A DNA stretch of 27,426 nt, from contig JBGMRO010000002.1 in NCBI GenBank assembly GCA_048061555.1, positions 1-27,426 on the forward strand, read 5' to 3'. Source of the stretch: Thiohalomonadales bacterium (lineage in GTDB: Bacteria; Pseudomonadota; Gammaproteobacteria; SZUA-152). This document shows positions 2,855-24,433 of the stretch, in pieces. The position numbers and the translations under genes were made by a program. The notes beneath the pieces are model-generated. The model was given only the letters and a program-made list of their open reading frames with translations, was not told the DNA's origin and made no database searches. The first letter of the stretch is position 1, and every line of letters starts with the position of its first letter.

Positions 2855-4213
2855 TCACTTCAGCCAATTTGTTATCTGCTCGAGATCTTGCGCCGAGACA
2901 TCGCCAGCGGCTTGTCTAAGTTTTAAGTTATCAATGACCAAGGTATAGCGGGCCTGGGCGTGAGAATTTTGCGAGAAAAACAATTCTCGACGAGAGATCA
3001 ATACATCAACCGTAGTCTTGGTGCCCACCTCAAAGCCCGCTTCGGTGGCACTTTGCGCACTCTCTCGAGAAATGACTGCCTGTTTCAGCGCCTTGACACG
3101 GCTGATGCCCGCAATCACATTCATATATGACTCACGTGCCGTTCGTTGTACGGAACGCCGCGCCTGCTCCAGGTTTTGTTTTGCTTGAGATAGTTGAAAA
3201 CCGGCTTGGCGAACTCTCGATCGTGTTGCACCACCTTCGTATAATGAATAACTCAAATTCAAATTAGCGGAGGTTCCGGTTGAATCAGATTTTTTAATAA
3301 AAATCGAATCTGATTCGTTTACATTGGCGTCGTAATTTACGGTTAAATTTAAGCGAGGATAGTAACCCGCTCGTGCGAAATTGATATTTTCTTTGGCGAT
3401 AGTTATACCTTGGGCAACTGACCGGATAATAAAACTTTGCTTAATGGCTAGATCAGTCCATTTATCTATATTGGCTGGTTTCGGTTCCAGTAACGGCGTA
3501 TCTTCCAATAGATGGGCGAGATTGTCGTGATAACGGCCCGTGACCTCGCGTAGAGACTCTCGCGCATTGGCCAAGTCATTTTCGGCCTGTATACCCGTTG
3601 CCAGGGAAAGGTCATAGCGTGCTTGCGCCTCGTGTACGTCGGTGATGGCCACGAGGCCGACATCAAATCGTTGTTTTGTTTGGTCGAGTTGGCGGGCGAT
3701 CGATTCGAGCTCTGCCTTCGCAAAACCGACCCCATCTTCGCCTGCCAAGACAGTAAAATATCGTACGGCGACCTTGATGATCAGTTTATGTCGTGCGGTG
3801 ACAAGATTGGCCTGCGCCTGCAATACGCTGGCATCGGCTATATCACTGAGGACAAAGTTTGTATAATTATAAAGTGGTAGGGACAGTTGCGCGCCGTAGC
3901 CGGTGGATTTGGGTTTAGTGGATCGTGTTACCGTAGTTTCCGTGAGCCTTGGTGGATCTGCCGATGGGGCTGGGGGTAGAGTGGTATCGGATGTGCTATC
4001 TGATTGGCTACCATTTGCGCTAAGCGTTACTGTTGGCAAATAATTCGCCAATGCAATCGACAGTTCTTCTTCGGTGGCATTTTCTATCTCTATCGCGGCC
4101 AGGTACTCCGGGTCATTCACCAAGGCAAGATTATAGATATCGAGCACGGTCTCTGCAAAGCTTGGACTACTAAAAAGGAGCAGGGCGAGTACAAAAAAAG
4201 AATGAATTTTCAT
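2855..4213 (-). CDS. tolC: TolC family outer membrane channel
   Basis: Signal peptide; RFDVGLVAITDVHEAQARYD, AGYYPRLNL and GFEVGTKTTVDVL motifs; classical pcm-tolC-waaA context. Confidence 0.93.
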   Translation of the reverse strand: MKIHSFFVLALLLFSSPSFAETVLDIYNLALVNDPEYLAAIEIENATEEELSIALANYLPTVTLSANGSQSDSTSDTTLPPAPSADPPRLTETTVTRSTKPKSTGYGAQLSLPLYNYTNFVLSDIADASVLQAQANLVTARHKLIIKVAVRYFTVLAGEDGVGFAKAELESIARQLDQTKQRFDVGLVAITDVHEAQARYDLSLATGIQAENDLANARESLREVTGRYHDNLAHLLEDTPLLEPKPANIDKWTDLAIKQSFIIRSVAQGITIAKENINFARAGYYPRLNLTVNYDANVNESDSIFIKKSDSTGTSANLNLSYSLYEGGATRSRVRQAGFQLSQAKQNLEQARRSVQRTARESYMNVIAGISRVKALKQAVISRESAQSATEAGFEVGTKTTVDVLISRRELFFSQNSHAQARYTLVIDNLKLRQAAGDVSAQDLEQITNWLK

Positions 4214-4287
4214 AAGTCGTCTAATGGTTAGTTGTGTGATAAATAGTTAAGAAATAGGCGTAGATAGCGGCTTGTCGTCCGGGTTAC

Positions 4288-4950
4288 TCAAAATACAAAT
4301 TTTTGCGGCATTTCCACGTTTTCGAGTGCAGGCAATACCGTTTCGAATAAACACTCGCGTTGAAACTCCGTAGCGGCGATGCGTTTGATCAGGTTGACTG
4401 ACATATTAGGTTGCTCGCCTTCTACGACAAAGAGTCTGCCATTGATGGCCAATTGGTTCTCTAGGACATCTGTGTGTAAGGGCAGGGACCCGGTCACCGC
4501 GATGACATCATAGGGGGCCTCGTCAGGCCAACCTTGGACGCCGTCTTGATTTAATATGGTCACATTATCGACGTTTTGTTCAGCGAGTCTTTTTTCCGCG
4601 CTATTTTTTAAAGACTCATAAATCTCTAGACTCCACACATGGCGGCCCAATTTCGCTAACAAGGCAGTGAGAAAACCGCTGCCGGTACCAATCTCTAATA
4701 TTTTATCTGTCGAGGTGATCGAAAGCGCCTGTAGTAGTCGTGCCTCCATGATAGGGCTCATCATAGTTTGCTGGTGTTCGATAGGAATGCTTATGTCGGC
4801 AAAGGCGAGTTGCTTGTATTCCTTAGGCACGTAGAGCTCTCTCGGCACGCTGGAGATGACGTCCAGGACGTGCGGGTCTAGTACCTCGGCAGGTCGAATC
4901 TGTTGCTCGATCATATTGAAGCGTGCTTGTTCTGTACTTACTTTATCCAT
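4288..4950 (-). CDS. pcm: Protein-L-isoaspartate O-methyltransferase (pcm-like paralog upstream of tolC)
   Basis: ARFNMIEQQIRP, VPRE, AFADI, SAM motif LEIGTGSGF and APYDVIAVTGS. Confidence 0.9.
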   Translation of the reverse strand: MDKVSTEQARFNMIEQQIRPAEVLDPHVLDVISSVPRELYVPKEYKQLAFADISIPIEHQQTMMSPIMEARLLQALSITSTDKILEIGTGSGFLTALLAKLGRHVWSLEIYESLKNSAEKRLAEQNVDNVTILNQDGVQGWPDEAPYDVIAVTGSLPLHTDVLENQLAINGRLFVVEGEQPNMSVNLIKRIAATEFQRECLFETVLPALENVEMPQKFVF

Positions 4951-5080
4951 GGTTTACCCTGTTCAATGCCCGATTATTATGTTCATGCAGTGTACTAAAC
5001 CTATTCGAAAGTTTCTATCGAGCGTGTTAGAATTCCCGCCCGGTACCATTCATTTAGAAATAAAAAATTAGGTTGAATAG

Positions 5081-7138
5081 TTGATATTTTTACCGCGCAG
5101 CATACGCTATTTAGGCATCATTGTCTTGATCCACGTAACGGTTTTTTCATTGCTGCGTGTGTTACTTTGGCGCTATTTTGATAGTCCCAGTGACCCTTTG
5201 TCCGGCATGGATAGCGCACAGGCACTCTATATAGGTTTTAAGTATGACCTTCGCGTAATACTGTTAGTCTTATTACCCCCGTTACTGTTGGGGCTGCGTG
5301 GGCCACTACGGCTGTTTAGTCCCTGGGGGAAGCGGGTCTGGCTGAGTTATTTTGTGATTGTGTTTTATATGATCATTACGCTCTCCGCGCTCAACTTTGG
5401 TTACTACGCCTATCTACAGCAGCCTTTGAACGCAACCATATTGCGTTTTTTTGGCAACCCTATGATATCTCTGACAATGTTGTGGCAAAGCTATCACATT
5501 GTTTTGATTATGTTGGGATTAATAACCGTTACTGCTGCGTATTTTTGGATTATACGTATTGCCTACGAGCGATTACAGGATGCACCCCAAAAGGACTATC
5601 GCCGACGCGGTAATATCGTACTCGGCAGCGTGATCTTCGTGCTCGTGGTAGGCGGATTGTACGGAAAATGGTCATATTATCCGCTGCGCTGGAGCGATGC
5701 CTATTTTTCTCCGCACCCCTTTGTCGCGGCTGTCAGTGTCAATCCGGTCTTACATCTCTATACGACTCTGAAAAATAGGCAAGTGACCTATAGTAAAAAA
5801 GAGGCGCAACGTTATTACCCACTAATGACAGATTATTTAGCGATAGACCAGCCTGATTCTGAAGCCCTATCCTATGTACGCCACCGAGAGGGGGGGGCGC
5901 TTGCACACAAACGTCCGAATGTCATCTTGGTCTTATTGGAGTCTTTTGCCAGTTACAAGACGAATTTGAGTGGCAACCCGTTAAATGCGACGCCCGTTAT
6001 TGCAGACGTGGCGGCGAATGCAATCTATTTTCGTAATTTCTTTGTACCACATACGGGCACCGCTCGTTCAGTATTCACCACGATTACCGGGTTACCCGAT
6101 GTCGAGGTTACCAAGACCTCGTCAAGAAACCCGCTGGTCGTCAATCAGCACAGTATCATGAATGATTTTGTGGACTATCAGCGTTTGTATTTTATTGGTG
6201 GTAGCGCGAGTTGGGGCAATATCCGTGGGCTACTCGCCCACAATATTGATGGACTGCAATTATATGAGGAGAATAATTACGAGTCACCGCGCAACGACGT
6301 ATGGGGGATATCGGATCTGGATCTATTTATAGAAGCGAATAAGGTCTTGGATAGGCTTTCTAGCTCACAAAAACAACCTTTTTTTGCCATAATTCAGACA
6401 TCGGGCAACCACCGGCCTTACACTATCCCAGACGATAAACACGGTTTCGTCTCTAGTCATCTCGATAAGGCCCAGCTCATCAAGCATGGTTTTGCTTCTC
6501 TGGCGGAATATAACTCGTTTCGGTTTATGGACTATAGTGTGGGTTATTTTCTCCAGCAGGCCAAACAAGCGGGTTATTTTGATAATACCCTGTTTGTATT
6601 TTATGGTGATCATGGTATCCATGCCGATACCGGGGCCCATATCCCGAAATGGGAGCAACAGTTAAGTATCCAGGGGCTGCGGGTGCCGCTATTGTTTTAT
6701 GGGCCAAAACTTATTCCAAGGGCACAAATTATTGATACGATTGCCAGTGAAATGGATGTGCTGCCAAGCATCGCGGGATTAGTTGCAAAACAATATATGA
6801 ATACTACACTGGGTAGAAACCTGTTTGATGACCGCTATGCACAGAGCCGTTATGCGTTTACGGTGACCCACGGAAATGGCCTAACACTGGGTTTGCTCAA
6901 TCAGGAATTTTATTATCAAATGCATGAAACAGGTAGCAACAGGAACTTATTTCAAATTCGTGCTGGCGATAAGTTTGTCGAGGATGCAAGAAAAAACGTT
7001 ATAAAAGATTTCCCAGAGCAGGCCCAAAAATTCGCGACCATGACCGAGGCCTTGTTTGAAACCGCCAAATACATGCGATATAACAATAAAGCTTATAAGA
7101 TGACCCCTGTACGAAATAAAGTGGATGCCACGAAGTGA
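5081..7138 (+). CDS. LTA synthase family / sulfatase-like phosphoglycerol-type transferase
   Basis: About five N-terminal TM segments, then an alkaline-phosphatase-superfamily domain: PNVILVLLESF, nucleophile region HTGTARS, TSGNHRPY, YGDHG, DVLPSI and GRNLF. Confidence 0.85.
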   Translation: MIFLPRSIRYLGIIVLIHVTVFSLLRVLLWRYFDSPSDPLSGMDSAQALYIGFKYDLRVILLVLLPPLLLGLRGPLRLFSPWGKRVWLSYFVIVFYMIITLSALNFGYYAYLQQPLNATILRFFGNPMISLTMLWQSYHIVLIMLGLITVTAAYFWIIRIAYERLQDAPQKDYRRRGNIVLGSVIFVLVVGGLYGKWSYYPLRWSDAYFSPHPFVAAVSVNPVLHLYTTLKNRQVTYSKKEAQRYYPLMTDYLAIDQPDSEALSYVRHREGGALAHKRPNVILVLLESFASYKTNLSGNPLNATPVIADVAANAIYFRNFFVPHTGTARSVFTTITGLPDVEVTKTSSRNPLVVNQHSIMNDFVDYQRLYFIGGSASWGNIRGLLAHNIDGLQLYEENNYESPRNDVWGISDLDLFIEANKVLDRLSSSQKQPFFAIIQTSGNHRPYTIPDDKHGFVSSHLDKAQLIKHGFASLAEYNSFRFMDYSVGYFLQQAKQAGYFDNTLFVFYGDHGIHADTGAHIPKWEQQLSIQGLRVPLLFYGPKLIPRAQIIDTIASEMDVLPSIAGLVAKQYMNTTLGRNLFDDRYAQSRYAFTVTHGNGLTLGLLNQEFYYQMHETGSNRNLFQIRAGDKFVEDARKNVIKDFPEQAQKFATMTEALFETAKYMRYNNKAYKMTPVRNKVDATK

Positions 7139-8532
7139 AACCTCTCGGCAAGAAAATTAAAATAGTTCTATCCGGTCTTTTTGTGATTGCTGCGTTGAGT
7201 ATCGCTATTTTTCCAGCACAGCAACAGATCGTTAGTCCACGTTTGACCCTGCCAGTGATAAAACTCGCCGGGCAATCGTTTGAAATTGAAGTGCGTCACT
7301 CGGTAGGTTTTAGTTTCTCTGACTGGCAGGTGGGCTTGATCGATTATAAAGGTGATGCCGTTGCATTGCCGGTATTGGACACGTCGATCGGTTTTGGGGT
7401 TTCCAGGCTAATCGTCAGTTTGCCGCAGTCGATGGTGACGGGACAATACACACTGGTGCTCGGTGATTCTCTACCCAGCAATACGCTGTTTAGTAAGAAC
7501 GCAGTCTATGTGCGTGACCACATGCCTGAAGATATTTCGATTATTCAATTGGCAGATTTACCAACCCTAGGTGGAGATGAAAGTGGGGATAAGGCATTAG
7601 AAGGTATAATTGAAGAGATCAATATCATCAATCCTGACGTCGTCTTGTTTAGTGGAGATCTGGCCTATGGCGGTAGCTGGGATCAGTACCGGCGTTTGCT
7701 AGCATTGCTCGAACAACTTGAAGTACCACTCATCACCGTGCCGGGCAACCATGCCTATTATGGATGGGCGGGTTATCTTAGTTTACTCGGTAGACCCTAC
7801 CACCAGGTCGAGTTGGGTGATTATCAATTTATTGGTCTGAATAGTGGTCACGGGCGTGACCAGATGACCATGAGTCAGCTACGCTGGCTGGAGACTACCG
7901 TGAGTCAATCTCCGGCCAAGCATCGTATCTTACAATTACATCACCCAATACATCATCCGGAAGATTTAGGCGGCTATTTGCGCGCGAATCGACACAGATT
8001 ATTGCGGATTATCGAACAGAGTGAGGTCGCCATTGTATTATCGGGACACTGGCATGGCGATTCGGTTTATGACGATACCGGTACACTGCGTACCGACAGC
8101 TGGGATTTTACAGGCACTCCATTCGTAGTAACGACCACGGCGGGTGCGGACCTTCGCCCGAACTATTCGAACTCACCGTTGCACTTTGGGTATCGGTTGA
8201 TACGTTTCGTCAATGGTGTATTGGAAAATTACACCTATGATTACGATGGCGATGGAAGCAGGGATGCGACAAGTTCCATTCCTGTCGGCAAGTTAAAGGT
8301 CGTGCCACGTGGGCGTTATGGCGTCGGTGTACATAACGAGCTTAACGAAGGTTTTCTAAATGCCCGCGTAAAGATACATATACCCGATGCGGACAACAAT
8401 TATCTACCAAACCGAGGCAAGGTCGAAAACGTGATAAGAAAAGACGGCGAATCCATTTATTCGATCTTGGTCGATATACCCGCTAATCGCAAGACTGCCA
8501 TATCTATGGTGCAAGAAGGTTACAATGATTAA
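7135..8532 (+). CDS. Exported calcineurin-like metallophosphoesterase with atypical motif I
   Basis: N-terminal hydrophobic segment; motifs ADLP (normally DxH), GDL, GNH, HHP and GHWH. GTGA overlap with the upstream stop. Confidence 0.8.
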   Translation: MKPLGKKIKIVLSGLFVIAALSIAIFPAQQQIVSPRLTLPVIKLAGQSFEIEVRHSVGFSFSDWQVGLIDYKGDAVALPVLDTSIGFGVSRLIVSLPQSMVTGQYTLVLGDSLPSNTLFSKNAVYVRDHMPEDISIIQLADLPTLGGDESGDKALEGIIEEINIINPDVVLFSGDLAYGGSWDQYRRLLALLEQLEVPLITVPGNHAYYGWAGYLSLLGRPYHQVELGDYQFIGLNSGHGRDQMTMSQLRWLETTVSQSPAKHRILQLHHPIHHPEDLGGYLRANRHRLLRIIEQSEVAIVLSGHWHGDSVYDDTGTLRTDSWDFTGTPFVVTTTAGADLRPNYSNSPLHFGYRLIRFVNGVLENYTYDYDGDGSRDATSSIPVGKLKVVPRGRYGVGVHNELNEGFLNARVKIHIPDADNNYLPNRGKVENVIRKDGESIYSILVDIPANRKTAISMVQEGYND

Positions 8533-14327: not shown

Positions 14328-14678
14328 CCCTATTTATGGTCTGGGGAGGCTGTTATTGGTCGTAAAGTGAGCATATGGAGGCCGGTCAGTTTGCGCTAGT
14401 GATATCGGCGACGTGGGCATTCAAAACCGCGCAATCACTAAGTCTTATCTATACAAGGCTGGCAAAAAGAAATTGCTTGGGGGGATTTCTTTTAGTCGCG
14501 CAGCGGGGGGCTCGGGATGCGTTAAAGAAAACGGAAACGAGATAGTGTGAGAAATTGTTCTATGACGATTGATTAGACAGAGCGGTAGCGTCTTCAGTCT
14601 TCGATAATAATCTGCGTGTAGTGGGTTTACAAAAATAAATGTCTGTTAGCAGACGAAAATGAATAAAGGAGTTTGTCT

Positions 14679-16736
14679 ATGTCATCACCAATACGGAAAT
14701 ACAAAATAGTCTGTGGTGTTTCGCTAATACTACTGAGCCAAGGCGCGCTAGCCATTGGGACATTGCCTGGCATCAATTTTACCGAAAGGAAAACGGAGCA
14801 GGTGTCGCGTAATATCCTGGAAAAATGTGTGTTTGGGCCTGTTTGTGATTTACCGTCGAGGAATATTATCGACACAGAATCGTTTACGGGGGTACCTGGT
14901 ACAGGTGATATCGCCCCCTATTATTCTACCGCCTATTTTTCACGCGCTATCGATAGCAAAAAACTGGCGCTAGCAGATGAACTTGAGATACAGGTTAACG
15001 TTCAGTCGCATAGTGGCATTCTTCCAGATTGTGGCATTCTCGTGCGCGAATTCTTTTTTCTATACCCTGATACTTCGACGTCAAATAACATTGTTTACTG
15101 TCAAGGTCGATCAGGGGATCTTGGGAGTCCAGGTTTTAGTTTTGAATGGGGACAGAATGATACCTCACCAAAACCTGGTAGCGATTTAAGCTATCCGATA
15201 ATTAATGGTGTAAAAATGGAGAGATGGACCACTCGTCGAAATATATCCTTTAAAAATCCGCGCTTATTGTACGAGTCGGAACCGGAAAAAATGTACCAGT
15301 CCGCCAAAAGGATTGTGCCGTATACGATGATTGAATACGACCTCAGTATGACTGAAGATTTTCGTGAAAGACCAGCTAATAGTTACGGGGCGACTAAAAC
15401 TACTACAGGTCTTGTTACTAATCTTCCTCCGATACGGGCGATACTGTTAAACAAAGACACGATACGTTTAGGTTGCAAATTAGGTCGCGATGTGCAGCGT
15501 ACTATTTTAAACCAATCCATAGAGCCAGTCTCTTTACTCCAATATCCTGAAATGTCGACATTTGTTGCCGGTTTCAATCTATCAAAACAATATGACGGGA
15601 CTACTTACAAACCAAATGTACAGCTTGAAAAATTGAAGTCTGCATGTGCCGGAGTTGGTGATGGTTTGGAGGTGTTTGGATTGGGGGCAGCTGAGAACAG
15701 AAAAGTCAATCTATACATAAGATACGGAACTCTAGTCGACGAGACCAATTTATGGGATGACTACGCCACCTCAATACGAGACGATCTTAATTACCGTTTT
15801 GACATTTGGAATTCTCTGAATAACGTCAATAATACGTTTGCGAGCTCCAATACGGAGTTGTTGGCCTATCTGCAGCGGGCTGCTAACGATATGAGATTAG
15901 TATTAACGGCGTATGCGCTAGACCCCGTTAATCTTCCTGCTTTTACCCTCGCCGAAGTCGATCAGTTTTTTTATGGCCCAAGTATGGGAGATCTGGCCGG
16001 GTTATATATACCCACCATTGATGTATCGGCGGCACCGGTAAGCTGGGCTACGTTTGATAGATTTGCAAAAGATGAGGCATTAAAGGGCGACCCACTATCA
16101 CCCTATATAAATTATTCAAGTGAAGTTAAATTACTGACAGCCCTGAATGACGTGCGAATATCTGGTAGCGCGGCGGTACTGGTTAATATAGTCAACGACG
16201 CGTTGGCAGATCTAGAGAACGAAATGTCCCGAGCGAATTACTTTTTGTTGCTCGTGGCAGCAGCGAACACCAAAGTCCAGACGGCGTTGAGTATTGTTCA
16301 AAGCGAAATAACCTTGGCATTGGGCCAGGCCTCTGCGCAACCATTGACACCGCTCACGATAATTACGGCGGCTACGGCACCGACAAATCCAGCACCCGGT
16401 ACAACAACTTCCTCAAATAGTTTTTTACCGATCACGTCGAGCAATGGGCCCAATGCGCCGATAACTGCTGCATCGTACATTGATGTTTATTGGACCGGTG
16501 CTGCACCGCCAGCGGGTTATAACATCGCCATTTTTGAAGAAGCGTCCGGTCTTCTACGTATTCAAAAAAGTGTGAGTGCGATGACCTTCGATGCTACTAC
16601 GCAAGAATGGTATATCGCACTTTCTGTTACGAATACCACACGCGTGGGGAATTACATCGTTGGATTTACATCCGCAAACATAGATACGTTATTTGGTGCG
16701 CCACGCAGTGATGTCTTTAGTGTAGTACGGCCATAA
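14679..16736 (+). CDS. Secreted uncharacterised protein A1 (paralog of 22409-24433)
   Basis: AAGGAG RBS 7 nt before ATG 14679; signal peptide ending GALA; six Cys in the mature part; helical middle; Pro/Thr linker; about 100 aa beta-rich C-terminal domain. Confidence 0.85.
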   Translation: MSSPIRKYKIVCGVSLILLSQGALAIGTLPGINFTERKTEQVSRNILEKCVFGPVCDLPSRNIIDTESFTGVPGTGDIAPYYSTAYFSRAIDSKKLALADELEIQVNVQSHSGILPDCGILVREFFFLYPDTSTSNNIVYCQGRSGDLGSPGFSFEWGQNDTSPKPGSDLSYPIINGVKMERWTTRRNISFKNPRLLYESEPEKMYQSAKRIVPYTMIEYDLSMTEDFRERPANSYGATKTTTGLVTNLPPIRAILLNKDTIRLGCKLGRDVQRTILNQSIEPVSLLQYPEMSTFVAGFNLSKQYDGTTYKPNVQLEKLKSACAGVGDGLEVFGLGAAENRKVNLYIRYGTLVDETNLWDDYATSIRDDLNYRFDIWNSLNNVNNTFASSNTELLAYLQRAANDMRLVLTAYALDPVNLPAFTLAEVDQFFYGPSMGDLAGLYIPTIDVSAAPVSWATFDRFAKDEALKGDPLSPYINYSSEVKLLTALNDVRISGSAAVLVNIVNDALADLENEMSRANYFLLLVAAANTKVQTALSIVQSEITLALGQASAQPLTPLTIITAATAPTNPAPGTTTSSNSFLPITSSNGPNAPITAASYIDVYWTGAAPPAGYNIAIFEEASGLLRIQKSVSAMTFDATTQEWYIALSVTNTTRVGNYIVGFTSANIDTLFGAPRSDVFSVVRP
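16422..16730 (+). repeat. Direct repeat copy 1 (C-terminal domain of A1)
   Basis: Aligns without gaps to 24122-24430 (offset 7700). 96/103 aa identical; 25 nt differences over the 280 nt counted. Confidence 0.95.
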
Positions 16737-16790: not shown

Positions 16791-16823
16791 TGGGGACCCT
16801 CTATGGGTCATAGCAGGTCCCCA
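16791..16823. other. Intergenic GC-rich hairpin between A1 and B
   Basis: tggggacc-ct-ctatg / ggt / catag-ca-ggtcccca, followed by atttt. Confidence 0.6.
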
Positions 16824-16877
16824 ATTTTCTATGCGACATTTTTTACGCAACTATATCTATGCAACAATGGAGGTAAC

Positions 16878-18053
16878 ATGAATTTACAAACAAGATATCT
16901 GTTTGGGTTATTAATAATAATTCTGCAGTTCCCGGTATATGCGTTCGAGATCTATTCTCCTACCGGTGAACCTGTGCCCGCACAAATGGATCAAGAGGAG
17001 GCGCGCCTTAATATATTGAATAGTCGTACGAATGAAGTCGTCTTTGCACATGGTAACTATGCAATTACGAGGGATAACTTGTTTCTGGGTAATGATGGCA
17101 TATTAATGCAAAGCAAGGCCTGGTATAGCGATGCATCAGTTTGGTTGGCGTTACTTGACAGTATTGTCACCTCATTTCAGACCAATAATATTAGCCAACT
17201 TGCTCAATTTAGTGTTCGAAATAAACTTCGAACACAGATAAATAGTGCCCATACAGAATTTTTGCGATTATCGAGCAGTGCGGCATCAATTCGATCTAAA
17301 AGCCAATCTGCACTGAATACGCTCGCTGATGTGAGACGTTTTCCAGCACAGTTTGTAACAGATTTTGACGCACCGATTGTGGGTTTAGTCGCTAGAGCAA
17401 ATCAGTTGGAAGATGCGGTCATCGCGATTAATAATACACTCAATATCAGCTTTATCTCGGCAACAAAATTGGCGCTGTCCAGAACACATCAAATCTCAGA
17501 GCTCTTGTTGAAATCTGCAGTGCTAAATACACAGTATGCAGCGATACAAGGGGATCTAAAGATGATGGAGTCCGTTCTGCTAGCAGAGAATATCGTGGCG
17601 CCACTCTATGCGGAACTATTAGAAATAAAAATTAAAATCAATACGCTCGTTAACGACAGCATGCCATTCAATGCAAATTCACAATTAGCGATAATGCAAA
17701 CGAAGAGCACGCAAGCGATTGCTACAATCAATAGTGCGGGTATCGGTGCTACGGAGGCACAAAGTGGCATAGACAGAATTAATGCTTTACTATTTAAAGC
17801 ACAAAACAGCGTTTCCTTGATTATGAATGCACCAGAGGCGGCCATTGTTTCACTTTACAGGAAATTGGCGGGTATCCCAGTGCTGTATTGTCGTTATCCC
17901 ATCGGTCAGAAAAAATTTAATTGTCCATTAATGAAGTCACTGGGTGGTTTAACCAATGCTGATATTTACGCGATGACGCCGGCAGATCTAAGATATTTTG
18001 AGGACTCGATAAAAAGAGTATATGACGGACCGATAACCATCGGAGGGATTTAA
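16878..18053 (+). CDS. Secreted, largely alpha-helical uncharacterised protein B
   Basis: GGAGG RBS before ATG 16878 (ORF-track start 16803 is less likely); signal peptide ending PVYA; long amphipathic helices; C-terminal Cys pair. Confidence 0.85.
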   Translation: MNLQTRYLFGLLIIILQFPVYAFEIYSPTGEPVPAQMDQEEARLNILNSRTNEVVFAHGNYAITRDNLFLGNDGILMQSKAWYSDASVWLALLDSIVTSFQTNNISQLAQFSVRNKLRTQINSAHTEFLRLSSSAASIRSKSQSALNTLADVRRFPAQFVTDFDAPIVGLVARANQLEDAVIAINNTLNISFISATKLALSRTHQISELLLKSAVLNTQYAAIQGDLKMMESVLLAENIVAPLYAELLEIKIKINTLVNDSMPFNANSQLAIMQTKSTQAIATINSAGIGATEAQSGIDRINALLFKAQNSVSLIMNAPEAAIVSLYRKLAGIPVLYCRYPIGQKKFNCPLMKSLGGLTNADIYAMTPADLRYFEDSIKRVYDGPITIGGI

Positions 18054-18054
18054 C

Positions 18055-20379
18055 ATGAAACCTAACATGAAAAGAATGTTTATTTCTATTTTACTGCTTG
18101 CATCAAGCATCATGATGGCTCCGGGCGTGAATGCCGCAGTACAATGTAACGCGATGTTGGCGATCGATAATATGGCGGACGGTGCCAAGATTGACCCGGC
18201 ATTATTGGCTAAAATGTTGGGTCGTACGCCTCTGACTTTTATCCCCTTTGTCGCTCAAGATATCGTAGCCTGGATTGATTATTTCAATATTAATTCAAAT
18301 CCCCAACCCCAAGCCCCAAAGATTGGTGATAGAACTGTGGCTATGACTACCACCAATACCATTGAATTAAGGGAATACAAATATACGGACTTCGGCTCAC
18401 CTGGATGGGTTATGTATTCTGATGTGGGTACGGTAACGGAACTGCTGCAGGATTTAAACAAATTTGAGCAAGAAATGAATGCGCTAGGTTATTCAATACG
18501 TACCACGGATAACGACTCAATATTTTCTGACGTAGAAGCACTGTATACGGACCAGAAAAAATTGAAGGCGCAAATGCTGCATGATTTAAAGGTCGCGGCT
18601 ACCACGCAATTACTGGAGTGCGCAGCGACTATACCCGTTGCGAATTGCCCCCAGTTTGACTTGCAGTATGCACAGACGCATTTGGTTGATACCGTTGAGA
18701 GAATCGAGGTGCTTCCTGATGGTACACAGAAAAAAATAGTAGAATCAGTAACACAAATCGATCCAAATAAAAAAGTTGACATTAACGGAAATGAAGTAAC
18801 CTTATCTACACTTATAAATGCAGCGAATAGCTCAGCCAAGGTTGCCTGTTTATTAAATATAAAATTGTTCGATCTTATTCCCGGATTCCAAGCAGTCTCA
18901 ATGCCAGGAATAGATCATCCGGTGATAAGCTGGAATTTACCGACGTTAAGCTTGCCGAATTTTGGTAAAATGACCTTTGCCGGCATGAGTTCGAAACTAC
19001 AAGCGCTTGGTTGCCCGAAATTTCTATGTGGCGCATTAGCCAAAGTCGGGTTCGGTGGTAGTGGTCCATCGAAATGGTGGGAGAATTATATAGACTTCGA
19101 TTTTGCTGATTTTAACTCACCCGAAGCGCTTAAATTAAAGGCTATTCAAAATACTTTGAGTGGCTTGAGCACTAACTTTGATATTCCCAATTTATCAAAA
19201 ATGCCGGTATTGGACCCACCTACGTATCCCAAACTACAACTCAAGAAAAAGAAGGAGTGGTCAGGAATAAACCGCGGTAGCCATGACCGAGTCGGAATTG
19301 AATCTCTGGCCTATTATGAGATCTATGGTAGCGAATTAGCGCAAGCTGGTGTGGCCTATGGAAAATTCAGCGCATGGATACTTGGATTAGAGATAAATAT
19401 TGTTAGTGCAAGTGGAGATTTTTTTACCGGTGTGGCATCCGAATCTAATAATATCGGCTTAGGGCTAACGAGTGTTGATCCTAGCGATATACTAGGATAT
19501 ATGGCTATTAAGCTTCGTTATTTTGGCGATACCTGGGAGAGTATACAGAATCAAAGTGGTGGATTAGGTATCTCGGTAAATAGAGACGAACCTCCCATTT
19601 CTTTTAAATTCATTATGGGTAACAGCTATCAGTTTACGGTGGGTCCAGTACCTGTGGTCGTCACTATTGGTGGTTACTTTGAGGCGGGCCTAGACTGGTC
19701 AGCCGGTCTTGGTCCATTTAAGATGTACGCGATGCTTGAACCTTTTGCTAAGGGTGGAGGTTTCGTTCAAGGGGGTGCCGGGATTGGCAAGTTTTCTGCT
19801 GGTGTAGGTGGCGAACTGACAATAATAGATGCCCGGGTTCCCCTAGAAGCCGCCGTGCGCTTGGCGTTTTCCGAAAATGGGGAGCCCTATTTAGATCTCG
19901 GTATATCATCTAAGCCCTATTACATCACCTTGGGCGGGCGTATTTACGCCTACGTTACATACCCATGGCCTAAATTTAGTTGGAGGCCCGGCTGGAAAAC
20001 AAAACAAAAAACAAAGACACTTTTTGAAACTCCGGGAGAATTACACGACTATCCTATTTTTGATTGGGGCATGGAAGTCGGGTATCGCGGGCTGACCATG
20101 CGCGGAGATTTAATCGATCAACAAGATTTAGCCATGGCGGCAATGTTGCAAGGTTCCATAGATATTTTCAATCGCGCCGACGCCTTGTCTTCTTATCTTA
20201 GTAAAACAAATCTTAGGTTAGTCAACTTCTATACGAAACTAGGGCAAGATCTCGCGGCAGAAACGACGAATGTCCCCGTGGTTACGAGTACAGTTGTTGC
20301 CGCATCTGACGCCTTTCTATTAGAGTTAGATACCTATAATTGTCATCTTTCAACAATTGCTGGTACGCCGTGTTTGTAA
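18055..20379 (+). CDS. Secreted protein C: helical N-half, amphipathic beta-sheet C-half resembling the LLTP open beta-sheet
   Basis: GGAGG RBS; signal peptide ending GVNA; starts 1 nt after the stop of B; Gly/aromatic alternating strands from about 19243 to 20090. Confidence 0.8.
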   Translation: MKPNMKRMFISILLLASSIMMAPGVNAAVQCNAMLAIDNMADGAKIDPALLAKMLGRTPLTFIPFVAQDIVAWIDYFNINSNPQPQAPKIGDRTVAMTTTNTIELREYKYTDFGSPGWVMYSDVGTVTELLQDLNKFEQEMNALGYSIRTTDNDSIFSDVEALYTDQKKLKAQMLHDLKVAATTQLLECAATIPVANCPQFDLQYAQTHLVDTVERIEVLPDGTQKKIVESVTQIDPNKKVDINGNEVTLSTLINAANSSAKVACLLNIKLFDLIPGFQAVSMPGIDHPVISWNLPTLSLPNFGKMTFAGMSSKLQALGCPKFLCGALAKVGFGGSGPSKWWENYIDFDFADFNSPEALKLKAIQNTLSGLSTNFDIPNLSKMPVLDPPTYPKLQLKKKKEWSGINRGSHDRVGIESLAYYEIYGSELAQAGVAYGKFSAWILGLEINIVSASGDFFTGVASESNNIGLGLTSVDPSDILGYMAIKLRYFGDTWESIQNQSGGLGISVNRDEPPISFKFIMGNSYQFTVGPVPVVVTIGGYFEAGLDWSAGLGPFKMYAMLEPFAKGGGFVQGGAGIGKFSAGVGGELTIIDARVPLEAAVRLAFSENGEPYLDLGISSKPYYITLGGRIYAYVTYPWPKFSWRPGWKTKQKTKTLFETPGELHDYPIFDWGMEVGYRGLTMRGDLIDQQDLAMAAMLQGSIDIFNRADALSSYLSKTNLRLVNFYTKLGQDLAAETTNVPVVTSTVVAASDAFLLELDTYNCHLSTIAGTPCL

Positions 20380-20484: not shown

Positions 20485-22338
20485 ATGAAACAAAAGAAAC
20501 TGGTTTTATTCTTACCCTTTGTTTTGCTGGTTATTGGTGCGTTAATATTTTTAAATGACATCAACAAGCAGACAAGCAAATCCGACGAATATTCAGGCAA
20601 GATGTCATTGCTTCAATATCATTTCCAGCCCGGTAGCGTGATTGAATACAAAATTGATTATCAATCGGAAGGGCAAGGAACCGTTAATATTAGTTCAAAA
20701 GTGAAGGCAAAAAAAAGCAGCGTCAATCATAAAGCACAGGTCGCGATGAAAGGGGGGCTGATACTAAAGCAAATTGCCAGAGATGACCAAGAGAATTATG
20801 TTGTCGAATACGAATTTACACCAGACACGATGAACATACAATACAACAACAAAGTTATACCAAAACCAGAACGAATCCAGACATCTGTGGTGATATTCCC
20901 CAATGGGACACTAAAATCATTTTATATGAAGGAAAACGTATTTTCGAACTATGGTCATATGATCAGAGAAATATTGTCCCTGCTTGAGTTTCCGCTACCG
21001 GCAGAGGCAGTGACTCATTGGTCGCATATGGAACGCAATATTAGTAAAGATCTAATGGCAAACTACATTGTAAATAACGTCAGTGATGATAAGTTGTTTT
21101 CTGTTGTTAAAACCTATGCAAAGGCTAGCAACAGCGAGTCGGTTAAAGGGCAGTTTGATTACACGTTTAATAACTCGAAAGGATATCTAAAATCCGTCCA
21201 CGGAGAACGAACCATAGAGTACAAGCTTGCTCAACAGGCAATGAGTGTTTCCACTGCTCGATTGAATGTAGAGTTTGTATCTTACTCAAAAGGAATGCAA
21301 GCACCTAGTTATGATAATACCATTTTAGGCAGCAATACGGGTATCATTGAGGAAACACTAAACGGAAAATATACGTCTACCAGAATAGAAAAAGAAGCCA
21401 ATACAAGCGCTTTAGGTAATGATGATTTAGTGACTCTCACCACTAAATTTGCAGCAGCCGATGAGTCCGATCATGCGGTATTAACAAAATTGGTCCAAAA
21501 ACTTTCCGCGTTACTTTATTTGCATCCAGACGTGTCGGGCGACGTAGCCGCGATGTTAGCAGATTATGAATATACCGACGGACGCTGGGGTGCGATCGCT
21601 GCCTCACTGGCGTACGTCGGACACCGAGAGGCACAACTAGCCATAATTGATGCGCTTAATGACACCAGCAGCGACAGCAAAACACAAATCGCCTTAATGC
21701 CGCATTTAGCGTTTGTCGGTAAACCCATCGTTGAAGCCGAAGAATACTTTCGCCAAGTGAAGCTCACGACTCGATCCGAGGAGGCGGCCTATAAATCTAA
21801 TAACGGGCTGGGCATAATCGCACAAAATCTACGTTACAGCGATAGCGATCGAGCCAAACAAATATACACAGAAGTCTCTGCAGAACTAGATAACGAGTCT
21901 GACCCGGTAAAACAAGTGCGTTTAATAGAAGCGATTGGTAATATGGGGATGGAGGAACAAACCCAATTATTGGAAGAATATTTAGACAGTCCCATCAAAT
22001 CCGTCAAATTGGCTTCGATTTATTCCTTACGCCACATCAATACCACCGATTCCAGAAGCCAACTCTTGGCCTATCTGAGCGACGATGATGAGAAGGTAAG
22101 AGAATCAGCCGCCATGGCCCTAGAATATACTACGGGCAACATGGACGCCCTACAAAAATATGAGCAGCGACTCAAACAAGAGACTAATGTCACGATCCTT
22201 AAAGTCATATTACGCAATCTCATCAAAATGTCCGATGATTTCCCGCAAAGTCTAGCGATATATGATCGATTTCTCACTACGTGTGCGCATAGGGATCTTT
22301 GTGGTTTTGCGAAGAGTTTGCGCTCGATGAGATCGTAG
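20485..22338 (+). CDS. Membrane-anchored protein D: beta domain plus HEAT-like helical domain, Vitellogenin_N/LLT-like
   Basis: N-terminal signal anchor; beta-rich residues about 40-270; helical repeats RLIEAIGNMG, VKLASIYSLRHI and VRESAAMALEY. Confidence 0.8.
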   Translation: MKQKKLVLFLPFVLLVIGALIFLNDINKQTSKSDEYSGKMSLLQYHFQPGSVIEYKIDYQSEGQGTVNISSKVKAKKSSVNHKAQVAMKGGLILKQIARDDQENYVVEYEFTPDTMNIQYNNKVIPKPERIQTSVVIFPNGTLKSFYMKENVFSNYGHMIREILSLLEFPLPAEAVTHWSHMERNISKDLMANYIVNNVSDDKLFSVVKTYAKASNSESVKGQFDYTFNNSKGYLKSVHGERTIEYKLAQQAMSVSTARLNVEFVSYSKGMQAPSYDNTILGSNTGIIEETLNGKYTSTRIEKEANTSALGNDDLVTLTTKFAAADESDHAVLTKLVQKLSALLYLHPDVSGDVAAMLADYEYTDGRWGAIAASLAYVGHREAQLAIIDALNDTSSDSKTQIALMPHLAFVGKPIVEAEEYFRQVKLTTRSEEAAYKSNNGLGIIAQNLRYSDSDRAKQIYTEVSAELDNESDPVKQVRLIEAIGNMGMEEQTQLLEEYLDSPIKSVKLASIYSLRHINTTDSRSQLLAYLSDDDEKVRESAAMALEYTTGNMDALQKYEQRLKQETNVTILKVILRNLIKMSDDFPQSLAIYDRFLTTCAHRDLCGFAKSLRSMRS

Positions 22339-22408: not shown

Positions 22409-24433
22409 ATGTCATTAGATTCAAGGACGATTAAGGTTATTGCGTTAACCGCATTAGCCATATTAAGTCAAAGTGTTTGGGCGATAGGGCCATTGCCTGC
22501 CGTTAATTTTGAAGAGCGTAAGTCCGATCAAGCGTCTCGGGATGTTTTGGAGAAGTGTGTGTTTGGACCGGTTTGTGATTTGCCGGTGGTAAATATTGTA
22601 GAGTCTGTGCAGTTGCTGGCCCATTCCAATCCACAGACCGGTAACCGTAATCTCAGCGATCTATCTAATTTTGAGTATATAATCGATAGCAAAAAACTGG
22701 CAGCAGTGGATGAGCTGGATATACAAATCAGTGTCACTGAAGTCGACCAGGCACAAGCTCTTCAAGATTGTGACGTTGTGTTTGAACAATTTCGATACCT
22801 TCATCCAGAAATTAATTACATTACCGGACATTATTGCGAAGGTGGGACTAGTGGCGAGGGATATATTGCGCCCGGTGCAAGTAGAATCTACGACTCGCCC
22901 GGGGGCGGGGGTATAACAGTGAGACAAATCTCGTATCGCGATGTAATATTTTCCAATCCACGCTATACAAAAGCAGCAGACCATTTAGTTTTAGCCGGTG
23001 GTCATTTTGAAATGGTTGAATACGACGTGTCGATGAAGGAAAAATATTTTGTAGGGACATACTACCATATGGACTTAATGCAAACTGAAATTACCAATTT
23101 TCCTCCAATTAAGTCGCTGGTAAGAAGCGCGTCCGCAATTTACCTGGGATGCAGCATCAATGGTACTCCAGATGGTACTATGCGCCCGCGTTCAGGTATA
23201 CTGCGCCGTCCTCTTACATTACAAGGGCCAGTCACGGGCGCCATTACTAGAGTTACTGCTAGTATTAGTTTAGCAAAACAGTTTGACGGAGCCGCTTTTA
23301 AACTACATCCACAATTAGAGCGTATAAGAAGTGCTTGCCCTGAAATAGGAAACAATCTGATATTATTTGGGTATGTTGATCCATACACTAGCATACAGAC
23401 TACTTCACCAGTCAACATACACTTTCGATACGGAAGCATAACCGACGAAACCAACCTATGGGACAACTACGCCACCACCATAAGAGACGATCTCAACTAC
23501 AGCTTCGACACGTGGAATAATCTCAATACAATACATTCAAGCTTCACCACTTCAAATGCCGAGCTATTAAAATTCCTAGTGCAATACTCAAACAAGATCA
23601 AGGATCTATTGGGGGTATATTCATTGGATCCTGCGACACCCCTCATTGATGTGGAGCAATTTTTTTATGGACCCGGTACAGGGGATTTAGCAGGTGTTTT
23701 CATACCAATCGTTTCCATTCCAGACGCGCCCGCCGATTGGCTCGCATTTGACAGAGACGCAAAGGATAAAGCAACGGGAAAGACGCCGGTAGATGCAAGC
23801 CTAAAAAGTAGTTATGTACAATATCTGGCTGACATACAAATGTTAGACAATCTCAATGCTGTAAGAATATCCAAGAGTACGGCGATACTAGTCAATCTAG
23901 TCAACACCGCGGTACAAACATTGGATAATGAAATGTTGAGGTCGCAATACTTTTTGGCGTTGGCAGATCACGCCAAAGCGAATATAAAAACCTCCCTGGC
24001 TGCGCTTACCGGCGAAATCACGGGTGCTTTGGCACTGGCAACAAGCTCGCCAACCGTATCGCTCCAGGTAGATCCTCAACCGACTGTGTCGCCAATAAGC
24101 ACCGCACCGACTACGTTTGGGTTTTTGCCCATTACATCGAGCAATGGGCCCAACGCGCCGATCACGGCTTCATCGTTTATTGATATTATTTGGACCGGTG
24201 CCGCACCGCCAGCGGGTTATTACATCGCCATTTTTGAAGAAGCGACCGGTCTTCTACGTATTCAAAAAAGCGTGAGTGCGATGACCTTCGATGCCACCAC
24301 ACAAGAATGGTATATCGCGCTCTCTGTTACGAATACGACACGCGTGGGGAATTACTTAGTTGGATTTACCTCCGCAAACATCGATACGCTATTTGGTGCG
24401 CCACGAAGTGATGTCTTTAGTGTGGTTCGCTAG
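22409..24433 (+). CDS. Secreted uncharacterised protein A2 (paralog of 14679-16736)
   Basis: GGGAG RBS; signal peptide ending SVWA; shares EKCVFGPVCDLP, IDSKKLA, DETNLWDxYATxIRDDLNY and the C-terminal domain with A1. Confidence 0.87.
   Translation: MSLDSRTIKVIALTALAILSQSVWAIGPLPAVNFEERKSDQASRDVLEKCVFGPVCDLPVVNIVESVQLLAHSNPQTGNRNLSDLSNFEYIIDSKKLAAVDELDIQISVTEVDQAQALQDCDVVFEQFRYLHPEINYITGHYCEGGTSGEGYIAPGASRIYDSPGGGGITVRQISYRDVIFSNPRYTKAADHLVLAGGHFEMVEYDVSMKEKYFVGTYYHMDLMQTEITNFPPIKSLVRSASAIYLGCSINGTPDGTMRPRSGILRRPLTLQGPVTGAITRVTASISLAKQFDGAAFKLHPQLERIRSACPEIGNNLILFGYVDPYTSIQTTSPVNIHFRYGSITDETNLWDNYATTIRDDLNYSFDTWNNLNTIHSSFTTSNAELLKFLVQYSNKIKDLLGVYSLDPATPLIDVEQFFYGPGTGDLAGVFIPIVSIPDAPADWLAFDRDAKDKATGKTPVDASLKSSYVQYLADIQMLDNLNAVRISKSTAILVNLVNTAVQTLDNEMLRSQYFLALADHAKANIKTSLAALTGEITGALALATSSPTVSLQVDPQPTVSPISTAPTTFGFLPITSSNGPNAPITASSFIDIIWTGAAPPAGYYIAIFEEATGLLRIQKSVSAMTFDATTQEWYIALSVTNTTRVGNYLVGFTSANIDTLFGAPRSDVFSVVR
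24122..24430 (+). repeat. Direct repeat copy 2 (C-terminal domain of A2)
   Basis: About 91% nt identity to 16422-16730 over the counted 280 nt. Confidence 0.95.

Follow-up and report, generated by a model that had tools for sequence, protein, structure and literature searches.

Lipoprotein assembly and yolk formation depend on large lipid transfer proteins (LLTPs), among them MTP, apoB, vitellogenin and the apolipophorins. To our knowledge, this machine is known only from eukaryotes, and it is treated as a eukaryotic invention. The alpha subunit of MTP (6I7S, 8EOJ; PF19444) has barrel and helical domains that are continued at the C-terminal side by two antiparallel sheets, the second with strands roughly twice as long as those of the first, and then a helix. 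Vitellogenin or lipovitellin (PF09172; 1LSH, 9ENR/9ENS) and the beta regions of apoB-100 (9BD1, 9COO, 9BDE) also have amphipathic open sheets with long hairpins, which there belong to a large funnel or lipoprotein shell and are accompanied by vWD and other domains. Here we analyze a stretch of 27,426 nucleotides from a Thiohalomonadales bacterium (GCA_048061555.1, contig JBGMRO010000002.1, positions 1 to 27,426; hereafter the window), in which five co-oriented genes encode exported proteins A, B, C, D and E. On the strength of its predicted fold and of gene linkage, we lean towards the reading that the beta domain of protein C, in complex with D, is a structural counterpart of the C-sheet/A-sheet lipid-binding domain of LLTPs. 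Literature searches found no published account of LLTP-like proteins in bacteria, nor of the C family.

The features of genes C and D are as follows.

18055..20379, + strand: gene C, encoding an exported 774-aa protein (open reading frame, with homologues at 48% and 34% identity).
18055..18135, + strand: Sec-type signal peptide, C residues 1-27, likely cleaved after VNA (read from the sequence; relatives all begin with signal peptides).
18136..19164, + strand: N-terminal region of mixed helices and small sheets, C residues 28-370, moderately conserved (model and alignment).
19165..19236, + strand: Pro-rich linker, C residues ~371-394, modeled with lower confidence, the actual domain junction (model and alignment).
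19237..19578, + strand: first sheet, C residues 395-508, with strands of ~8-16 residues, the proposed counterpart of the MTP C-sheet.
19243..19266, + strand: KKKKEWSG, on the first strand of the beta domain, where it is the local form of a conserved K-x-K-x-W-x-G motif.
19597..20106, + strand: second sheet, C residues 515-684, with main strands of 15-22 residues, the proposed counterpart of the MTP A-sheet (model and family alignment).
19993..20019, + strand: second basic/aromatic strip, W-K-x-K-x-K, family consensus PPWKxK, late in the domain (alignment).
20119..20358, + strand: three-helix C-terminal tail, C residues 689-768 (model).
20341..20373, + strand: terminal Cys pair C763/C773, in a C-x9-12-C-[LI] ending conserved in the closest relatives.
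20485..22338, + strand: gene D, encoding a membrane-anchored relative of the LLTP front module, with a beta-barrel and a helical/HEAT part (domain, profile and Atlas matches).

The preliminary description of the window had drawn attention to nucleotides 19243-20090, which map to C residues 397-679. It reported a KKKK stretch (residues 397-400) followed by Gly- and aromatic-rich strands, a helical tail and a terminal Cys pair, and all of these, including every string that it quoted, are present. The segment contains 15% Gly and 15% Phe+Tyr+Trp, compared with 5% Gly and ~8% aromatics in C residues 28-396. The protein ends in PCL after a helical tail of ~90 residues and has no terminal aromatic beta-signal.

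AlphaFold2 models were built for full-length C, from 150 sequences, and for the domain alone (C 380-700), from 137 sequences. In the full-length model, residues 395-684 form long hairpins throughout, at a predicted local distance difference test score (pLDDT) of 85-98, and are followed by the three helices; the domain model has a pLDDT of 90.4 and a predicted template modeling score of 0.72. Structure matches obtained from the ESM Atlas model of C, whose pLDDT is poor at 0.41, were not used as evidence. Being the best-conserved part of the family and confidently modeled, the Gly- and aromatic-rich segment is not a chance pattern. Partial structural matches divide the domain at about residue 505 and therefore argue for two sheets rather than one barrel. 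We infer that the beta region consists of two consecutive open beta-sheets, the first short-stranded and the second long-stranded.

Outside its own family, the only significant structural matches of the modeled C domain are the lipid-binding domains of LLTPs, with MTP the best in every library searched and vitellogenin weaker. When the domain model was compared with the PDB by Foldseek, MTP (6I7S) matched at E 6.4e-6 with a probability of 1.0 and a template modeling (TM) score by query of 0.40, honey-bee vitellogenin was at rank 3, and the best non-LLTP match had E 0.04. The whole C model gave E 2e-6 for 6I7S and 0.02 for the best non-LLTP structure. Among Swiss-Prot models, ranks 1-10 were all MTP, from nematode, fly, fish and mammals including human (E 1.7e-6 to 3.3e-5). 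Vitellogenins held ranks 11, 12, 15 and 21, and non-LLTP proteins appeared from rank 13 at E 2e-3 or worse. In the AFDB clusters, the matches beyond the bacterial family of C included a Naegleria "lipid transport family protein" (1e-8), a sponge vitellogenin-domain protein (3.4e-8) and entries labeled MTP_lip_bd, MTTP and vitellogenin. In an ESM Atlas shape search, the TM score by query was 0.52 for an MTP cluster and 0.48 for a vitellogenin cluster. VIA-align also placed 6I7S at the top (Z 8.9), aligning 248 of 321 residues at 6.0 Å, with C 390-684 laid onto MTP 538-882. This range covers the whole lipid-binding domain of MTP, residues 604-884 (PMC6717300). In its predicted models, the C domain has the two sheets of the LLT module in their order, C-sheet then A-sheet, with Foldseek E-values from 6e-6 to 1e-8. 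These models suggest that it is probably a distant homologue of the domain with which the LLT module closes in MTP, vitellogenin and apoB.

Strands that are amphipathic and rich in Gly and aromatics could also belong to an outer-membrane beta-barrel, or to another membrane-inserted beta structure that anchors C. The host is Gram-negative, and the window contains genes for a Kdo transferase, a lipid A acyltransferase and a TolC-like protein. However, matches to outer-membrane proteins span one of the two sheets (~90-150 residues) or have a root-mean-square deviation (rmsd) of 10-20 Å. Their Foldseek probabilities are 0.03-0.44 at E>=0.05, and there are none in the top 30 of the AFDB clusters. 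In the ESM Atlas search, TonB/OMP clusters reached TM scores of 0.39-0.45 with fewer residues aligned. Compared with porins, TonB-dependent receptors and Omp85, C has no whole-domain closed-barrel match and no beta-signal at its C-terminus; the domain is internal, and in giant relatives it lies between soluble extracellular-type domains. The preliminary description had said that a closed outer-membrane barrel or an aerolysin/leukocidin-type fold would speak against its own proposal, and the region is modeled as two open sheets instead. We therefore regard a membrane-inserted structure as improbable.

The AFDB clusters also contain the evidence for a relationship to AsmA-like or TamB-type proteins, whose open beta grooves convey lipids from one bacterial membrane to another. 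One cluster, named "AsmA-like C-terminal domain-containing protein", matches the C domain at E 2.2e-12 with a TM score by hit of 0.70, and a DUF3971 protein matches at 8.9e-5. Yet the named cluster is a 223-aa protein with an automatic label and is probably a fragment of the C family itself. The Pfam models AsmA, AsmA_2 and DUF3971 match neither C (E<=1) nor 64 relatives (E<=0.01), and no TamB or YhdP structure is found among the PDB matches. This explanation, which also leaves the partner D unaccounted for, seems to us a poor prospect.

If the C domain corresponds to the pocket sheets of an LLTP, the remaining part of the module would be supplied by D. A Pfam scan finds HEAT_2 repeats in D. 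Vitellogenin_N (PF01347) matches its helical part at 26.9 bits, and because the same model also responds in a HEAT-rich control genome, this match is weak when taken by itself. A profile built from seven D-family proteins matches lipovitellin (1LSH) at E 7.9e-7; its best stretch pairs D 132-204 with lipovitellin 90-160, within the N-terminal barrel, so that the barrel is matched at the sequence level. In the Atlas, the model of D can be superposed on eukaryotic MTP clusters along D 13-615, with TM scores of 0.46-0.48. In precomputed tables, relatives of D bear PF01347, one of them at 53 bits, and databases already tag some D-family proteins with a vitellogenin N-terminal domain. From the profile, PF01347 and Atlas matches, we therefore infer that D resembles approximately residues 1-600 of MTP and the C domain the remainder, which agrees with the earlier proposal that D is a relative of the LLTP N-module.

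Most relatives of D have an N-terminal hydrophobic anchor. Together with the signal peptide of C, this anchor indicates that both proteins are extracytoplasmic. The sequence ends of both proteins suit an oxidizing compartment: the conserved terminal Cys pairs of C and D suggest disulfides in exported proteins, and C763/C773 probably form one. Near the end of D, a C-x-x-x-D-x-C-G motif (residues 600-607; 22285-22305) is invariant in 4 relatives.

The preliminary description had remarked that C is a separate gene placed directly before D. We searched a sample of 401 genomes from across the phylum with C-domain and D profiles. The C domain was found at 7 loci in 6 genomes of 4 genera, and every one of these loci, and no other, gave a full-length D match, downstream and on the same strand. 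The other 395 of the 401 genomes gave short HEAT fragments or nothing for the D profile. When distant relatives and giant C-domain proteins are included, every one of the 13 informative loci contains a D-family gene (the window; L002, L003, L004, L007, L010, L016, L017, L018 and L019; and, from genomes, L011, L012 and L013); related genomes are not independent and the counts overstate the statistical weight, but the pattern itself has no exception. L009 is uninformative because it stops at a contig edge. The D-family gene adjoins C in 11 loci, the window counted. It is two genes away in L007 and upstream in L010. In the window D follows C as first described, and across the loci D is strictly linked to the C domain.

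The linkage extends to very large proteins. In a predicted lipoprotein of 3987 aa (L011:2124-14087, + strand), the C beta domain occupies approximately residues 2530-2830 alongside Big_9, TSP_3, aspartyl-protease-like, PD40, Laminin_G_3, PKD, PA14 and Ig-like domains. A second giant host has >2800 aa (L013:1-8487, + strand). In both cases a D-family gene comes next.

These giant hosts bear on a further explanation, in which the C sandwich is a lipid-free protein-docking or scaffold module that binds D and assembles or tethers surface proteins, including giant adhesin-like ones, so that its likeness to LLTPs would be architectural only. The embedding of the domain in the two giant proteins, each followed by a D gene, fits this explanation, as do the TSP3 repeats and hydrophobic C-terminal tag of some relatives and the lack of a sequence match between C and the LLTP pocket families. 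Against it, the likeness spans both sheets in the order seen in MTP, and D resembles the remaining part of the same protein, a coincidence that is difficult to account for unless the whole module, with its known role in lipid binding, was inherited from a common ancestor. We consider a docking module unlikely.

Several observations weigh against the interpretation of C and D as a split LLTP. The structural fit is moderate: TM scores of 0.40-0.52 and rmsd of 5-6 Å indicate similar architecture and not a tight superposition, and identity in the structural alignments is 7-15% (7-10% with MTP, at TM 0.4-0.5). All of the folds are predictions, and the hydrophobic cleft between the sheets is putative. 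PF19444 (MTP_lip_bd) had no match at E<=10 in the genome of the window or in 5 other C-domain genomes, and the C-domain profile matched no LLTP chain among PDB sequences. No natural D-C fusion was found among 157 proteins. The preliminary description had likened the segment, from a sequence pattern, to the vitellogenin open sheet. The fold upholds this likeness, more closely for MTP than for vitellogenin, but the sequence does not, as PF09172 (Vit_open_b-sht) gave no match at E<=10 in a six-frame translation of the whole genome. The broader proposal of a split and reordered LLTP fares similarly: the predicted sheets of C, the front module in D and the strict linkage of the two genes speak for it, and the missing sequence match to the LLTP pocket families speaks against it. 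What the models and the loci offer in its favor is thus predicted fold and gene linkage.

Relative to MTP, the C sheets form a separate polypeptide whose gene lies upstream of the front-module gene, and C is extended by a further region of 370 aa at its N-terminus and by a helical tail of 90 aa. The pair would reside in the bacterial envelope and not in the endoplasmic reticulum, and it has no PDI partner.

If the pair is a split LLTP, C would be exported by Sec and would then dock, outside the cytoplasm, onto D. Residues ~392-686 of C would fold as a two-sheet amphipathic beta-sandwich, with the short-stranded sheet preceding the long-stranded one, and D would supply the N-terminal beta-barrel and helical clamp. 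Together the two proteins would rebuild a two-chain LLT-like module, with lipid or another hydrophobic ligand held in the cleft between the sheets. The ligand is proposed by analogy, and we hold this part with less confidence than the structural correspondence itself. The domain has two conserved Lys/Trp strips, KxKxW at its first strand and WKxK towards the end of the second sheet, and these may provide a basic rim that receives head groups or faces a membrane surface.

The first of these strips includes the KKKK stretch, which had been suggested to be a proteolytic maturation site. This suggestion is not borne out. The stretch sits within the confidently modeled first strand (395-402) of the beta domain, where it is part of a conserved strand motif, and the flexible Pro-rich linker precedes it. 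All of the 15 relatives compared share K398, K400, W402 and G404, and the spacing of conservation at i, i+2 and i+4 in K-x-K-x-W-x-G is consistent with one face of a strand. Two related B-C-D clusters contain genes for trypsin-family serine proteases (L007:10055-12676, + strand; L018:7326-8543, + strand), and in L007 the protease gene together with a DUF7957 gene separates C from D. These genes make cleavage after Lys/Arg a possibility and are the sole hint in its favor.

C belongs to a real, unnamed bacterial family. Searched exhaustively with HMMER, 1.84 billion representatives yielded 222 family members at E<=1e-3, 32 of them at E<=1e-30, and the part that they share corresponds to C 355-740, with a core at 520-660. 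A word-indexed search of 5.8 billion proteins returned C itself only. C was not recovered in 60 relatives when a single protein served as the query. The second sheet is the most conserved part of the family and carries the motifs FxxGPIPV, AGVGG and LxGxxYAYA; nearly invariant positions are G530, P533, G539, G583, L626, G628 and G661. C itself matched 0 Pfam families at E<=1, no NCBIfam model and no PDB sequence. In 65 family members, a Pfam scan found accessory domains only, among them lectin domains and TSP3 repeats of the bacterial type. One relative is encoded in a complete genome (CP007142.1, NCBI, 6.48 Mb).

Eight family members (P0009, P0014, P0015, P0021, P0026, P0030, P0035 and P0039) have C-terminal TSP3-type repeats, then a "TPE(N/T)..." motif and then a hydrophobic stretch of 12-15 residues (…LIPILxLLL-N/H/G). 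This ending resembles an undescribed sorting or anchoring tag, and the NCBIfam sorting-signal models gave no match to it.

The other exported proteins of the window are encoded by the following genes.

14673-16736, + strand: gene A, a paralogue of E.
16803..18053, + strand: gene B, encoding an exported helical protein.
22409-24433, + strand: gene E, a paralogue of A.

Gene C is translationally coupled to B. The stop codon of B is 1 nt ahead of the C ATG, and a GGAGGG sequence lies at 18042-18047, 8 nt upstream of that ATG. Most related loci likewise have a B-like gene immediately before C (L003, L004, L007, L010 and L016-L019). This coupling would suit a multi-component pore-forming toxin, in which B supplies a helical part of the ClyA/Hbl type and the beta pore is built from the long hairpins of C. 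The nearest language-model neighbors of B are the HBL/NHE and HlyE (ClyA) clusters, with scores of 0.77-0.84, and MACPF and gasdermin pore forms are among the weak Foldseek and VIA matches of C. The scores of B, however, are under the 0.9 threshold for a lead in the language-model search. The MAC, perforin and gasdermin matches have E>=0.02 and a probability of ~0.1, with an rmsd of >35 Å for MAC, and a Pfam scan found no MACPF, aerolysin or leukocidin family match. Since D would also be left without a role, we give the toxin explanation very little credence.

The B-C-D core lies between genes A and E. Locus L002 has two A-like paralogues (3502-5208 and 5391-7253), both on the downstream side of D, and they have no family match. 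The more distant relatives of C, of the 545-aa type, have four to five tandem genes of ~200-290 aa upstream of the B-like gene, also with no family match (L010:1292-5471, L019:5259-8879). In a single case, a gene for MlaE, a phospholipid ABC transporter permease, lies ~2.7 kb downstream of a B-C-D cluster (L017:8164-8985).

Should the split-LLTP interpretation of C and D be correct, a widespread bacterial gene pair resembling the whole LLT module would give the superfamily a prokaryotic root. A tentative extension, which we put forward with more doubt than conviction, is that an ancient bacterial two-chain lipid-transfer module handles envelope lipids, and that fusion of such a gene pair gave rise to the LLTPs of eukaryotes, first MTP and later vitellogenin and apoB. 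A natural split version would also let the cooperation of the barrel/helix clamp and the pocket sheets be studied, and it would point to an unrecognized lipid-handling system in bacterial envelopes.

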